A stretch of DNA of 63,685 nt, the filler included, from an uncultured archaeon (GTDB lineage Archaea; Iainarchaeota; Iainarchaeia; Iainarchaeales; 1-14-0-10-31-34), in NCBI GenBank assembly GCA_964442255.1. It is 4 parts of 4 records of this genome, joined end to end, with 100 filler letters (N's around TTAATTAATTAA, not from the genome) between each part and the next. Parts side by side here need not be neighbours in the genome. Positions count along the whole stretch, not along the records: positions 25,720 to 51,315 come from CAYTYC010000022.1; 3 more parts are not named here. One strand, written 5' to 3'. This document shows, piece after piece, positions 45,001 to 48,000 of this stretch. A program made the position numbers. Within the stretch, counting starts at the first letter, position 1. Every line of letters starts with the position of its first letter.

Positions 45001-48000
45001 CCGCCGCAATCCTGCAGCACAACCCAAGGTAACGTGCATCTCGCTTTTCCAGTTCCTTGCCTACAGCGGTTACAGCCAATACAGGCATCCCCGCTTTTTC
45101 GCCTTCATCAACCAGCTTTGCCAGATTTAATATGGTCTGCTTTTCGTGCACTGTTCCCACAAAAATTGATAACGCGACAGCCGAAGCGTTCAGCCTTACC
45201 GCGTCTTCCATGGAGGTCGCAATTCCTTCATCTGAAAGGTCTTTTCCAATGACACTTGTTCCCCCTGAAACCCTTAAAACCACTGGAACCTTTTCCTGCG
45301 GATCAAAGCAGTTCCTCAGCACCCCGCGGGAAAGCATTAACGCATCAGCATAGGGAATCAGCGGCTTGATTGTTTCGCCCGGCTTTTCAAGCATTCTTGT
45401 TGGACCCAAAAAATACCCGTGGTCCAGTGCCAGCATTACGGTGTGCCCGTCTTTTTGAATTATCCGTGAAAGCCTGTTTTTTTTGCCCCAACTCATTTAT
45501 TTAACCTCCTTTAAACCATAAGAAATCAGTATAAAAGCAATAAAAAGCTAATGGAGAAAAGAAATGGGAAAGTTGCCCCGGAAAAAGTTTTTGGGGCTTT
45601 TTTTTGTTCAACTAAAGAAAAAAGGGAATGGAAAAAGAAGTATTATTCAAAGAGAAGAAAAATTTGGGTTAAACATCATTAACCCTTTTTTTCAATTTCA
45701 CGCCCTGGACGGGAATTGAACCCGCGTCACAGCCTTGCTGCAAACCCTCCTTAAGGGAGGCATCGAAAACCTTTGTTCCAGTCTCCCTGAAACTTAAGGG
45801 AGGCACCGAACGGGAGGTTCGGGTTTATTCCCCCAAACTTAAGGGAGGCATCGAAACTGCAGGTTCTGATTCCGACAGGGCTGTATCCTAACCACTAGAC
45901 TACCAGGGCAGATTTGTCTCTGCCAGATTAATTCTTTCACAAGAATGTTTAATAAATTTTGCCGTTTAGCCCAAAACAGGCTTTTTTAAGAGGCAATTAT
46001 TTTAATTGGCTGCCCAACCGGCTTTTCCGGGGTTTCTTCCGGCCCAGGCAAAGGGAAATGCGCTGCATTGTATGCCTTGAACACGTCAATTATCCCGTGT
46101 CCCATGAATTCGTCCCAGTTGTTTCCTTTTTCCGTAGACTGAATTATCGGGTCAATGTCTTTATGCGGGTTGGTGCTTGTTTTTGGTTTCGTGTTGCTTT
46201 CAATGATTTCCTTCACTTCCTCCGGCGCAAGACCCGGGTTTTTGTTTAGTATTATTGCCGCAAGAGATGAAACGTGCGGCGCTGACATGCTTGTCCCTGA
46301 AAACCAGGTGTAGTATTCTCCTCCGTTGCAGGTTAAATCCGCGTTTCCTTCTAAGGGGTAGCAGGAGTAAGTTGAAAGCACTCCTCCTCCCGGAGCCATT
46401 ACATCCAGCGCCTCTCCGTAATTGCTGAAGCACGCCCTTCTTCCGGCATTGGTTGTTTCATCCACGCATGCCTGTGTGCAGGTTCCGTTCAGGCAAAACC
46501 CTCTTTCGCCTATGTCGTCATGGTATACTGCGCCAACTGCGATTACTTTTGAGCCGCATGCAGGGCTGCTTACACCGGAATTTTCGTTTCCGGCTGAAGC
46601 CACCACCACTATTCCCTGCTCTACTGCCTGGTTTGCCTTGTCAGCCAGATATTCCCCGTCGCAGTGGCCGGGATAGTTTCCGCCTCCAAGGCTTAAGTTT
46701 ATTACGTCCATTCCGTTTTCAACAGCCCATTCAATTGCATTGGCAATGTCCCATGCATGGCAGTAACCGTCTTCATTGCATACTTTAAGTGAATAAATTT
46801 CCGGGCCAGAGTAAACGCCTTTCGCGTAATCAGGTGAAGGAAAACCGTATTCGTTTTCCACTTCAGTTAAGCCAAAGCCCGTGATTATCCCAATTACGTT
46901 TGTTCCGTGGCCTGCCCAGTCCAGCGGAGTCTGGTCGTGAATGTACCTGCAGCTTGTCTTTGCACTGCAAAACACTTCCATTCCTGCAATTGTTTCACTT
47001 ATCTCCGAATGGTTTGGGTCAACCCCTGTGTCAATTACCGCAATCTTAACATTGTTTTCAGCACCGGCGCCTGAAGTAGTGTGGGGAATTTTTTTTCTTG
47101 GCGGAGAGCTCCAAACTTTGTCCGCGTTAAGGAATTCCGCAGCGCTTAACCCTCTTACCCTGTAAATTTTGTCTTCTTCTGCCATTCCCTTTCGCACAAG
47201 GCTTTTTGCGGTGCGGGAATCGCATTCCATTGCAATTGCATCTGAAAGCGCACCAACAATCCTGCATTTTTTGGAGCTTAAATCATTTTTATATTTTAAA
47301 TTGTCTTGCCTTAAAATTATCCTTTCTTTTCTTTCCCCTGAAAACTTTTCAGTTAAAGGGGTTACCTTAACAATCTTTTTTTCAACTTTTTTTCCGTTTT
47401 CAATTCCCACGGCATTTACAATTTCAAATGAATTAAGCCTGAGTGAATTCAAGTTAAACGGATTTAACTTCGGGTTAACGGAAAAAGCAGAGGCGGTTCC
47501 GCTGAATAAAACCAGTGCAATCAAAACCGTAATCCATTCTTTTCCCATAAAACCACGTTATGTATAATTTATTTCTTTTATAGATAATATGAATGTTGTT
47601 TTTTTTGGATTTAATTCTTTCCAGCCAGGTTTTTATACTTGAAAAGACATAGTTGTTACGTGACAGCGCTTATGACTCCGTTTTTTCGCTTGTTTCTATA
47701 AACTTGGTTGGGCGTTCTGTATTTAAGGCTTGAGTGTGGCGTGTTGTTGTATTCGCGCGTAAAGCGCGCCAACAACTGGTTGGCGTGGGCAATGCTGCGC
47801 ACAGTGTAGCGGGAGAGGTATTGCTTGATTTTTTTGACTACCGCTTCTGCTTTGCCGTTGCATTTTGGGTTGTGGACGCGGGTGCGAATGTGTTTGATTC
47901 CTTTGAGTTGTGCATCAAAGTTTTTGCGGTATTGGCGGCCGTTGTCTGTTAGCATGGCTTTGAATCCGCCTGTTTGTTTTCTGGCTAACCTGAGGTTGTC

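Follow-up and report, generated by a model that had tools for sequence, protein, structure and literature searches.

The tRNA-Asp(GTC) gene of this archaeon is interrupted by an intron of 137 nt, which raises the question of what so long an intron is made of and how that material arrived. We analysed the gene within a window of 63,685 nucleotides (the whole stretch of DNA under study), together with the rest of the genome (1.28 Mb, about 90% in long open frames) and with genomes of the same order. The initial annotation had described the long tRNA introns here as mosaics of recurring hairpin modules, and our results bear this out: the same families occur across the order, modules are nested in one another, and different introns share pieces. 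The body of the tRNA-Asp intron consists of three diverged copies of one such module, F3, of about 45 nt. We think it fairly likely that the modules are small non-autonomous mobile repeats, which spread as DNA and fill an otherwise ordinary, protein-spliced intron. From sequence comparison we infer that mobility is the cause of their presence and that they would serve no function needed by the tRNA.

The tRNA-Asp gene and the F3 copies in its intron

The gene was detected by ARAGORN only with introns allowed and was missed by the Rfam tRNA model in the window search; its exons match the tRNA-Asp of intronless relatives. This has a practical side: many of the intron-bearing tRNA genes here are overlooked or mislabelled by standard tRNA finders. 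The features of the locus are as follows.

45701..45909, minus strand: tRNA-Asp(GTC) gene with a canonical 37/38 intron
45873..45909, minus strand: 5' exon, 37 nt (tRNA nt 1-37, ending in CCCTGTCG); splice point read from the bulge-helix-bulge in the sequence
45736..45872, minus strand: intron, 137 nt (GAATCAG...TTTGCAGCA)
45701..45735, minus strand: 3' exon, 35 nt
45947..45959, minus strand: TATA-like A/T-rich box (AAATTTATTAAAC), 37-49 nt upstream of the tRNA 5' end, by consensus reading
45659..45692, minus strand: inverted repeat followed by a T-run, terminator-like, just downstream of the tRNA 3' end
45825..45872, minus strand: F3 copy 1, complete (nhmmer 45871-45835, E 1.3e-11; covariance model R2, 54.2 bits)
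45780..45824, minus strand: F3 copy 2 (nhmmer 45820-45790, E 5.5e-6; R2, 44.9 bits)
45736..45779, minus strand: F3 copy 3 (nhmmer 45767-45750, E 0.0016; R2, 36.3 bits)

The A/T-rich box is the probable promoter of the gene, and the 3' flank contains no module. Judged by its site, its splice motif and the enzyme genes present, the intron is plausibly of the archaeal protein-spliced bulge-helix-bulge type. As read from the sequence, the motif comprises the anticodon stem CAGCC/GGCUG, a 3' bulge CAA, a 4-bp helix CUGU/GCAG and a 5' bulge CGG, with a weak outer helix (AA/UU); an unconstrained minimum-energy fold reproduced the stem, the 3' bulge and three of the four central pairs, and paired the 5' bulge otherwise. 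Predicted splicing leaves the anticodon loop CUGUCGA, as in the intronless relatives G028, G027, G036 and G012. The genome encodes one splicing endonuclease (PF01974, 96.7 bits; frame at C19:20859-21119) and one RtcB ligase (PF01139, 528.8 bits), and all tRNA introns seen in it occupy the canonical site. The intron is thus presumably removed from the RNA: the anticodon loop would pair with the last intron bases to form the bulge-helix-bulge, and RtcB would join the exons. Since the endonuclease requires this motif at the two junctions only, inserted sequence between them would be tolerated.

Analysis of the intron revealed a 27-nt core occurring three times, at spacings of 43 and 45 nt. The left end of copy 1, (G)AATCAGAACC, is flush with the 5' splice site and is followed by the hairpin GAACC..GTTTC, CGATGCCTCCCTTAAG and a second hairpin. 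Copy 2 consists of the hairpin CCGAAC..GTTCGG, then TGCCTCCCTTAAG and the hairpin TCCCT..AGGGA, while copy 3 has a degenerate left half followed by CGATGCCTCCCTTAAGGAGGG. By the pairing seen in the sequence, the tail of copy 3, GCAG plus CAA, forms the splice motif's central helix and 3' bulge. In pairwise comparison, the three copies are no more alike than each is to copies elsewhere; duplication in place is not singled out by these identities, and separate insertions are also compatible with them.

It is extremely improbable that the arrangement results from repeats mis-joined during assembly or binning of this metagenome-assembled genome. Many contigs do end in F2 repeats and several module arrays contain scaffold gaps, yet an independent assembly of a public run, possibly from the source sample, covered 45300-46272, and with it the whole tRNA-Asp gene, with 0 differences, so that the three-copy intron is not an artefact of the present assembly. 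The module families also recur in many other genomes, one of them closed. In run X2, low-depth contigs end at the borders of the tRNA-Asp intron.

Module families in this genome and across the order

The repeat profiles were built anew, independently of those behind the initial annotation, and were run with nhmmer at E<=0.01. They recovered modules in the introns of several tRNAs, in tRNA flanks, in the rRNA leader and 16S-23S spacer and at contig ends, largely the distribution reported before. F1 gave 16 matches, seven in introns and nine within 500 nt of a tRNA; all 16 thus lie at tRNA genes, a territory of 3.7% of the genome. Its covariance model gave 17 strong matches, all in tRNA introns or tRNA 3' flanks and all on the strand of the tRNA, and three weak ones, two of which adjoin a tRNA or a partial tRNA match, the third being C17:27628-27740. 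F3 gave 21 matches (eight in introns, five adjoining tRNAs), and the 88 F2 matches fall at 65 loci, of which 40 lie no more than 300 nt from a contig end. F5 is a 130-nt composite found at 15 loci, including the 16S-23S spacer and the tRNA-Pro(GGG) intron. Sequence reading agreed with the earlier description of F4 as tandem three-hairpin units of about 68 nt behind tRNA genes. The initial annotation had counted 12 matches for F1, 23 for F3 and 63 (39 loci) for F2; the numbers differ because they depend on the profiles, and the pattern is the same. Further copies in the window outside the tRNA-Asp gene are the following.

51255..51315, strand not assigned: partial F5 copy at the end of the contig that carries the tRNA-Asp gene (nhmmer E 1.7e-12)
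51441..51463, strand not assigned: F2 palindrome in the 3' flank of tRNA-Ala(CGC), whose gene lies at 51486-51578 on the minus strand
25513..25594, strand not assigned: successive F2 palindromes at the preceding contig's end, where the assembly breaks within the repeats

Different introns share module sequence: agreement is 91% across 68-71 nt for those of tRNA-Ser-GCU and tRNA-Arg-UCU, and 97.7% across 43 nt for the F1 cores in the introns of Ser-GCU and Gly-CCC. Searches for known RNA families returned only tRNA, both in the window at the gathering threshold and at 19 module loci at E<=0.1.

Among related genomes the families are patchily distributed. F1 is present in 17 of the 41 genomes of the order, which hold 0-20 copies each, and F3 in 14 of the 41 and in 13 of 141 in a wider sample, with copy numbers from 0 to 3 within the single genus g2. 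The F3 core is almost letter-identical across families. Confinement of F1 to tRNA genes, as initially proposed, applies to this genome and fails in relatives: in G023, F1 also lies between protein genes, and one copy is antisense inside an intron. Distant genomes have F1 in introns of the same tRNAs as here (Ser-GCU, Pro-UGG and Pro-CGG in G023, Glu-UUC in G018), which suggests long retention and weighs against recent mobility. In named genomes, the F1 pattern matched three times in one archaeal record and once each in 21 bacterial records and one methanogen record; the single matches look like chance. Viral contigs yielded no exact match to an F3 pattern or an F1 pattern.

Comparison of tRNA-Asp loci covered 27, of which 18 could be parsed. 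Six are intronless, and 12 have introns of 28-151 nt at the same site with unrelated content; only the genome studied here has F3 in this intron.

The structure of F1 bears on a rival account, in which the modules are selected functional cis-elements of precursor RNAs or genes and mobility is secondary or absent. We regard this as unlikely. F1 would then be a hairpin-plus-TATA promoter for the 3' half of the tRNA or for the next gene, and F4 and F2 would be trailer or terminator hairpins. Consistent with such a role, the second hairpin of F1 covaries, as previously claimed, at eight of ten pairs here and at all ten over 63 copies from relatives (97.5% of cells paired, in an alignment fitted to the model), while GATACGT and TATAAATAT are invariant. 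The uniform strand of the 17 strong copies and the recurrence of F1 in the same tRNAs' introns point the same way. So do two positions: the TATA-like box of F1 ends 21-22 nt before the 3' splice site in the Gln, Glu-CUC and Ser-GCU introns, so that a start would fall near the first base of exon 2, and in G007, G004 and G006 F1 lies 31-37 nt upstream of tRNA-Gln, the expected place of a promoter. The initial equation of this box with the tRNA promoter TATA is valid for the class of A/T-rich box; the tRNA promoters here have such boxes about 24-36 nt upstream, seldom with identical letters. Joining of split tRNA halves requires a leader on the 3' half. A 3' half beginning at nt 38 would be without one, which argues against the cis-element account, as do the absence of F1 from 24 of the 41 genomes and of F3 from 27, the differences between close relatives at the same gene, the antisense F1 copy and the target repeats around copies between protein genes. 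Moreover, the genome has RNase P RNA as well as promoters and terminators of the ordinary kind, and a need for special processing is therefore not apparent. The presence of RNase P RNA also rules out special leaders as a consequence of missing RNase P, and the loci read contained no inverted F3 leader/trailer pair that could form a processing stem around one tRNA. The near-invariance of the F3 core and the compensatory changes in F1 could reflect a host function.

Insertion footprints and module ends at RNA borders

If the modules spread as mobile DNA, each arrival would be an insertion with duplication of 12-42 nt of target sequence. Flank repeats were scored against the 99th percentile of 2000 mismatched flank pairs for F1, and 15 of 74 copies exceeded this threshold. 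About nine of the 15 represent one insertion each, with the repeat directly adjoining the element (L030, 42 nt; L082, 36; this genome's C17, 36; L027, 26, with mismatches; L035, 20; L034, 20; L074, 19; L038, 18; L031, 17), and the rest are tandem arrays or unrelated matches; L032 and L080, with 13-nt repeats, lie at the threshold and also abut. For F3, six of 56 copies exceeded the threshold, and in four the repeat abuts the junction (L141 and L165, 29 nt each; L173, about 27; L157, about 23). The target repeats are direct, vary in length from 12 to 42 nt and accompany a minority of copies only.

Comparison of filled and empty sites revealed differences within one genus. At tRNA-Gln(UUG), G008 and G006 have a 44-nt insert accompanied by a 15-nt repeat, a second copy of tRNA nt 1-15, absent from G007 and G004, and G006 and G005 have a 49-nt intron made of F3, absent from G007, G008 and G004. 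These differences are not polarised as gain or loss on a tree. At four loci, an F2-like piece of 41 nt interrupts F3 after GGTTCCG, and in the array flanking tRNA-Leu(GAG) in this genome one unit differs from the next by an F1 core and a repeat of 36-39 nt. The proposal that introns grow by insertion and duplication of modules thus gains support from target duplications, nesting, presence and absence within the genus and the turnover of the tRNA-Asp intron. Once inserted, modules would multiply locally into tandem runs and insert into one another. They would persist mainly in the pieces cut away from precursors, namely tRNA introns, leaders and trailers and rRNA leaders and spacers. Modules probably both colonise the spliced-out parts of stable-RNA precursors and create such parts.

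Partial tRNA copies accompany some inserts. The Leu(GAG) and Leu(UAA) genes are followed by a repeat of the 3'-terminal 20 nt of tRNA-Leu, 12-16-nt copies of the tRNA-Gln and tRNA-Tyr 5' ends lie upstream of those genes, and an inverted copy of neighbouring tRNA bases lies beside inserts at at least four loci here and two in relatives. Given the Leu, Gln and Tyr copies and a TATA-like box between two exons, the modules and the partial tRNA copies could be scars of integrative elements or of tRNA-gene rearrangements: att duplications left by integration and deletion, unequal recombination of paralogous tRNA genes, or split or permuted genes that were rejoined, the trailer plus promoter becoming the intron. 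A case in Caldiarchaeum, where intron gain and a tRNA fragment accompany a 1.8-kb recombinase-bearing element (PMC3293823), offers a precedent. We nevertheless consider such an origin improbable. The inserts between repeats measure just 30-250 nt and contain no gene; the same modules occur at unrelated non-tRNA targets, each with its own repeat, for which one att core is insufficient; the only tyrosine recombinase gene found in the genome is not near these loci; the tRNA-Asp exons are collinear and adjacent; and the F3 and F1 patterns had no exact match in viral contigs.

We then compared module ends with mature RNA borders, using 60 F3 copies with an intact left end, drawn from this genome and from 49 loci around matches in relatives. 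F3 starts exactly at the 5' splice site in eight of the 60 (plus tRNA-Asn, mislabelled by ARAGORN), at a tRNA 3' end in sense orientation in six and at a tRNA 5' end in antisense orientation in seven; by our own rough estimate, about 0.03 flush copies would be expected by chance. CCA was found at none of the six tRNA 3'-end junctions. In two further copies, in G002 and G003, the start of F3 comes 4-5 nt after the genuine 3' end of 16S. In this genome, a module hairpin begins 0-3 nt past the 3' end of at least 18 of 42 predicted tRNA genes, the others having oligo-T.

Because the module ends coincide with mature RNA borders, they point to targeted insertion and not only to the survival of harmless copies. 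A more specific version, which we put forward tentatively and hold to be less likely than not, treats the modules as gene-less insertion elements of a new kind, aimed at exact mature-RNA borders (nt +1, the 3' end, 37/38 and the 16S 3' end). On this view the inverted copies of neighbouring tRNA bases would likewise be added on insertion. An insertion aimed at 37/38 would bring, or soon gain, pairing with the anticodon loop and so yield a spliceable bulge-helix-bulge. DNA alone does not mark the end of a mature RNA, so recognition of such a target would have to rest on RNA ends or RNA-DNA hybrids. If this were true, the elements would bring about the gain of archaeal tRNA introns and not their growth alone.

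The same borders enter the cis-element account, in which F3, placed directly past mature 3' ends, would act as a signal, such as a site of binding or cleavage that resembles the 16S 3' end plus CCUCC. The nearly invariant F3 core, its constant polarity relative to the RNA end, its place behind 16S in G002 and G003 and the many hairpins directly behind tRNA 3' ends all fit a signal. The likeness to 16S, which the initial annotation had attributed to chance, is not significant: a 10-mer and GAT.ACCTCC are shared, yet the profile score is 1.3 bits, rank 214 of 522 sub-threshold matches, and we do not regard F3 as copied from the 3' end of 16S.

A mobiliser was sought in this genome, which is 93.8% complete, and in the module-rich relatives G023, G011, G029, G007 and G018. 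No reverse transcriptase (PF00078) was found in this genome, no Cas1 (PF01867) in it or in the five relatives, and no IS200-type Y1 transposase in the five. This genome has two Y1 proteins, the tnpA of an insertion sequence in the window, which scores above the IS200 model cut-off, and a stand-alone C9 ORF, which scores below it; both fall below the cut-off of the REP-transposase model. The presence of Cas1 or Y1 transposases does not follow module copy numbers, so neither was retained as a mobiliser. The window's IS200/IS605 element, the only one present, was rejected as a source of modules, its left and right ends being unlike them. Against a mobile nature stand the failure to find a mobiliser, the lack of terminal inverted repeats and the variable flank repeats, which are unlike ordinary transposase products.

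Implications and comparison with known systems

Beyond the initial annotation, the analysis adds the patchy spread, the long target repeats, the nesting, the within-genus differences, the turnover of the tRNA-Asp intron and the flush ends. For the origin and growth of archaeal tRNA introns the modules offer a concrete lead: F3 alone makes up a whole 49-nt intron in some genomes, while the same gene is uninterrupted in others. Intron material that can be traced outside introns, with insertion footprints and within-genus differences, makes intron gain and growth testable by sequence data and straightforward biochemistry. That several unrelated families lie flush with mature RNA ends hints at a principle of targeting undescribed for prokaryotic mobile DNA. 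In our literature search, neither these modules nor the tRNA introns of this lineage were found described.

MITEs and REP-like repeats are short, non-coding, multi-copy and hairpin-forming, mostly intergenic, nested, clustered and uneven among relatives. MITEs are marked by terminal inverted repeats, a short target duplication of fixed length and an autonomous partner with a transposase. The modules resemble both groups in being short, non-coding, multi-copy, hairpin-forming, mostly intergenic, nested, clustered and uneven among relatives. Unlike MITEs, they have no terminal inverted repeats (left and right ends differ in aligned copies, and the hairpins are internal), their flank repeats vary from 12 to 42 nt, and no partner transposase was found in this genome or the five module-rich relatives. 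Unlike either group, their ends are flush with mature RNA borders, and no REP-associated tyrosine transposase accompanies them as in REP/RAYT systems. These small prokaryotic repeats are reviewed in PMC3184786.

Casposons duplicate the end of a tRNA gene on integration (PMC5137440), and archaeal viruses and plasmids also target tRNA genes (PMC4090602). As with these, a terminal tRNA piece is duplicated beyond the insert and the gene stays whole; the module inserts differ in being 30-250 nt long and gene-less, in occurring in module-rich genomes where Cas1 was not found, and in their targets, which include tRNA 5' ends, position 37/38 and non-tRNA sites. The Caldiarchaeum subterraneum case, which concerns tRNA-Thr (PMC3293823), likewise combines intron gain, a stray tRNA 5' fragment and a mobile insert; in place of a 1.8-kb recombinase-bearing element, the units here are tens of bases long, gene-less and of several families. 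Split and permuted tRNA genes (reviewed in PMC3978253 and PMC4033280) share a promoter-like box before the 3' half and structured sequence after the 5' half, whereas the tRNA-Asp halves are adjacent and collinear, with a normal intron between them and no complementary leader/trailer pair.

A likeness in intron content comes from intron transposition in Thermoproteales, where different tRNA species of one genome share intron sequence by a mechanism stated to be unknown (PMC4090602); the subject is also treated in section 2.5 of a 2026 preprint. The present host belongs to a small-genome archaeal order, and in contrast to the cases described there, its modules are sub-intron units and not whole introns, occur also in flanks, in rRNA spacers and between protein genes of relatives, have long target repeats in some instances, and occupy introns that are all at the canonical site. 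Common to both systems are similar sequences in the introns of different tRNAs, a spread that would take place at the DNA level, and the bulge-helix-bulge as the sole requirement for tolerance.

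The tRNA-Asp gene and the tRNA gene set

A tRNA-Asp(GTC) gene was identified on the minus strand of the window by ARAGORN with introns allowed, and was missed both by ARAGORN without introns and by the Rfam tRNA model. The gene is composed of the following parts:

45701-45909, minus strand: tRNA-Asp(GTC) gene
45873-45909, minus strand: exon 1
45736-45872, minus strand: intron, 137 nt
45701-45735, minus strand: exon 2

An assembly made independently from a public run, possibly of the same sample, covers 45300-46272 with zero differences. The intron body consists of three copies of the ~45-nt module F3, of which only copy 1 is complete, the left halves of the other two being worn. 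From the sequence, the exon-intron junctions can be read as the canonical splice motif, which comprises the anticodon stem CAGCC/GGCUG, the 3-nt bulge CAA, a 4-bp helix of C32-U35 with GCAG near the intron end, a second 3-nt bulge (CGG), and an outer helix that is weak. The predicted cut would leave the loop CUGUCGA, identical to that of the relatives' intronless tRNA-Asp genes. The tRNA-Asp fold has a free energy of -83.4 kcal/mol (z = -2.78), and the genome encodes both a splicing endonuclease (one gene) and RtcB. Among 27 tRNA-Asp loci, nine fell outside the search pattern, and hence 18 were compared; six are intronless and 12 carry an intron of 28-151 nt at an unchanged site. Across these parsed loci, the introns of same-family genomes contain A/T-rich palindromes, and F3 is found only in the genome under study.

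This genome comprises 1.277 Mb in 51 contigs (93.8% complete), four of which form the window. ARAGORN with introns predicts 42 tRNA genes; roughly half of these contain an intron, with lengths of up to about 220-260 nt. Its labels are wrong for several tRNAs (Gln as 'Stop', Asn as 'Thr', Tyr as 'Asp', Leu as 'Pyl' or 'Phe'), with at least six genes mislabelled, and its calls at C13:28582 and C3:26449 span scaffold gaps or questionable introns. Standard detection fails here: the tRNA covariance model gives 31 places, with the long-intron genes not among them. The tRNA-Ala(CGC) gene (51486-51578, minus strand) spans 93 nt against a 71-position model and therefore probably contains an insertion or intron of ~20 nt; an F2-type palindrome lies 22-45 nt past its 3' end. 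Beyond the window, the 16S rRNA match (C17:1481-3155) is 1675 nt long against a 1478-position model, so that at least one insertion in the gene is probable; F2-type modules lie within its processing stem (CTGGAGTTGAATT.. with ..AATTCAACTCCAG), on the 3' side.

Module families and their junctions with mature RNA ends

The initial annotation had described the long tRNA introns as mosaics of hairpin modules, which also occur in tRNA flanks and rRNA spacers. BLAST of the introns against the genome and profiles from iterated nhmmer gave the same picture, and the observation is borne out far beyond chance. F1, which combines hairpins with a TATA-like box, has 16 matches, seven in introns and nine within 500 nt of a tRNA, all inside tRNA territory that makes up 3.7% of the genome. 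F3 has 21 matches (13 at tRNAs), the palindromic F2 has 88 matches at 65 loci (40 at contig ends), and the 130-nt composite F5 occupies 15 loci, including the tRNA-Pro(GGG) intron, a tRNA-Leu 3' flank, the 16S-23S spacer, and the end of the window contig carrying tRNA-Asp. F1 runs from a variable hairpin 1 through a conserved linker ending GAGATACGT to hairpin 2 and TATAAATAT. In hairpin 2, compensatory changes occur at 8 of 10 pairs within the genome and at 10 of 10 in 63 copies found in relatives, with 97.5% of cells paired in an alignment that had been fitted to the model. All 17 strong matches of the F1 covariance model lie on the tRNA's strand, and each starts immediately behind exon 1 or the tRNA 3' end, or where an array of F4 (a tandem ~68-nt three-hairpin unit) starting there stops. 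By eye, GGTTCCGATACCTCC of the F3 core (for example 45835-45871) resembles a tRNA T-arm and acceptor strand, such as GGTTCGAATCCTCC of tRNA-Leu genes.

The most striking new observation is the flush placement of F3, whose left end, (A)ATCAGAACC, sits right next to the terminal base of a mature RNA segment and is oriented away from that segment. We analyzed 60 F3 copies with an intact left end, from this genome and from 49 relatives' loci fetched around matches regardless of tRNAs. F3 starts at a 5' splice site in eight copies (plus tRNA-Asn), at a tRNA 3' end in sense orientation in six, at a tRNA 5' end in antisense orientation in seven, and 4-5 nt behind the 16S 3' end in two; four others are later copies inside introns and the rest lie elsewhere. 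By a rough estimate, ~0.03 flush junctions would be expected by chance. None of the six flush tRNA 3' junctions contains CCA. In at least 18 of the 42 predicted tRNA genes, an F4 or F1 hairpin begins 0-3 nt past the 3' end; the remaining genes have oligo-T there. Two tRNA-Val genes have an F2 palindrome running up to their 5' end, and an antisense F4 unit stops at the 3' splice site of tRNA-Tyr.

Insertion footprints and variation among relatives

In relatives, many module copies lie between direct repeats of the local sequence, and this was tested against 2000 mismatched flank pairs (99th percentile as cut-off). For F1, 15 of 74 copies exceed the cut-off, about nine of which are single insertions with the repeat ending at the element (42, 36, 36, 26, 20, 20, 19, 18, and 17 nt); the remaining ones represent either tandem arrays or unrelated matches, and two more copies lie at the threshold (13 nt). 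For F3, 6 of 56 copies exceed it, four of them with repeats of 23-29 nt adjoining the junction. The element and the right-hand repeat are often set apart by a short variable filler. In the closed genome of one relative, G023, the 42-nt F1 duplication contains a gene's last codons, a ribosome-binding site, and the next gene's start codon, so that both genes are intact. In addition, a 41-nt F2-like piece splits F3 after GGTTCCG at four loci.

At tRNA genes, the target repeats have +1 as their exact starting point (Gln, Tyr) or take in the tRNA's final 20 nt (Leu), and the inserts often contain an inverted copy of the adjoining tRNA bases. The array 3' of tRNA-Leu(GAG) (C17:22850-23460; ~293-nt period, with a scaffold gap) is built of units containing a copy of the tRNA's last 20 nt, F1, an F3-like half, and a palindrome, in this order, and also GGAGGATTCG, an inverted copy of the tRNA's CGAATCCTCC; one unit differs from its neighbour by the F1 core and a 36-39-nt repeat. 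The layout at tRNA-Leu(UAA) on C5 is similar. Both tRNA-Gln genes and tRNA-Tyr (C1:84036-84093, C42:2627-2684, C38:3333-3592) have 12-16 nt of their own 5' end copied upstream, followed by a module, an inverted copy of tRNA nt ~5-13, and the real gene; a leader so built could fold into a long hairpin.

Covariance models detected F1 in 17 of 41 genomes of the order (0 to 20 copies per genome) and F3 in 14 of 41; in a wider sample, F3 is present in 13 of 141 genomes at E<=1e-4. G023 carries F1 in the introns of tRNA Ser-GCU, Pro-UGG, and Pro-CGG and also between protein genes. Within one genus, g2, F3 copy numbers are 0, 0, 1, 1, 2, and 3. There, tRNA-Gln(UUG) is uninterrupted (GGGCTTTGAACCCG) in G007, G008, and G004, while in G006 and G005 it contains a 49-nt intron at the canonical site 37/38, composed of F3 and a 14-20-nt tail. 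A 44-nt insert that comes with a 15-nt repeat (tRNA nt 1-15) precedes this gene in G008 and G006 and is absent from G007 and G004; G007, G004, and G006, but not G008, have F1 at 31-37 nt upstream of tRNA-Gln. The footprints, the nesting, and this presence and absence within a genus support the earlier interpretation that introns are assembled from modules and grow by them. Copies are more alike within one genome than to same-site copies of other genomes, a pattern that fits turnover or gene conversion.

Origin of the modules and comparison with known systems

Taken together, the modules are probably small non-autonomous mobile repeats. They would create long target duplications on insertion, increase in number locally, and survive in those parts of stable-RNA precursors that are cut away; the tRNA-Asp intron would be one such sink, removed by ordinary splicing. 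The main rival, that some modules are functional, seems to us unlikely, and the two readings are not exclusive. The nearly letter-identical F3 core across families, the hairpin and TATA-like box retained by F1, the expected promoter position of F1 before tRNA-Gln in three relatives, and the recurrence of F1 in the corresponding tRNA introns of distant genomes all speak for a function. In three introns of the genome under study, moreover, 21-22 nt separate the end of the box from exon 2, so that any transcription from it would start at ~nt 38. A required function, however, is at odds with the lack of modules in most genomes, the differences in the same gene among close relatives, and the copies at unrelated targets.

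A search for the mobiliser of such repeats found one tyrosine recombinase and no reverse transcriptase in the genome under study; Cas1 and IS200-type transposases are absent from module-rich genomes, including G023. F1 and F3 patterns were not found in viral contigs, and no known RNA family matches any module. The window contains an IS200/IS605-type element (4189-5759, plus strand; flanks about 4080-5790), with a 139-aa IS200-family tnpA (127.5 bits) followed by a 384-aa tnpB-like gene with a Cas12f1-like TNB domain (86.9 bits), a hairpin CCTATAACCTAA..TTAGGTTATAG near the left end, and a similar motif (ACCTTTAAATACAAC) on both sides. It was rejected as the source of the modules, its ends being unrelated to them. 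A stand-alone IS200-like tyrosine transposase ORF (C9:47094-47591, minus strand; 165 aa, HVH motif) scores 45.9 bits, under the family cut-off; it has no adjoining tnpB, and F5 copies lie ~1 kb away.

We found no prior description of such modules in the literature, supplements aside. The closest parallel is intron transposition as inferred for Thermoproteales, in which different tRNAs carry similar introns by a mechanism described as unknown (PMC4090602). A 2026 preprint, for which this transposition is the positive control, leaves open how introns arrived in Asgard archaea. In Caldiarchaeum, intron gain and a stray tRNA fragment are tied to a 1.8-kb recombinase element (PMC3293823). Unlike these precedents, the modules described here are sub-intron, probably mobile units that are also visible outside tRNA genes with insertion footprints; their differences within one genus and the flush placement at mature RNA ends common to several module families are likewise new.
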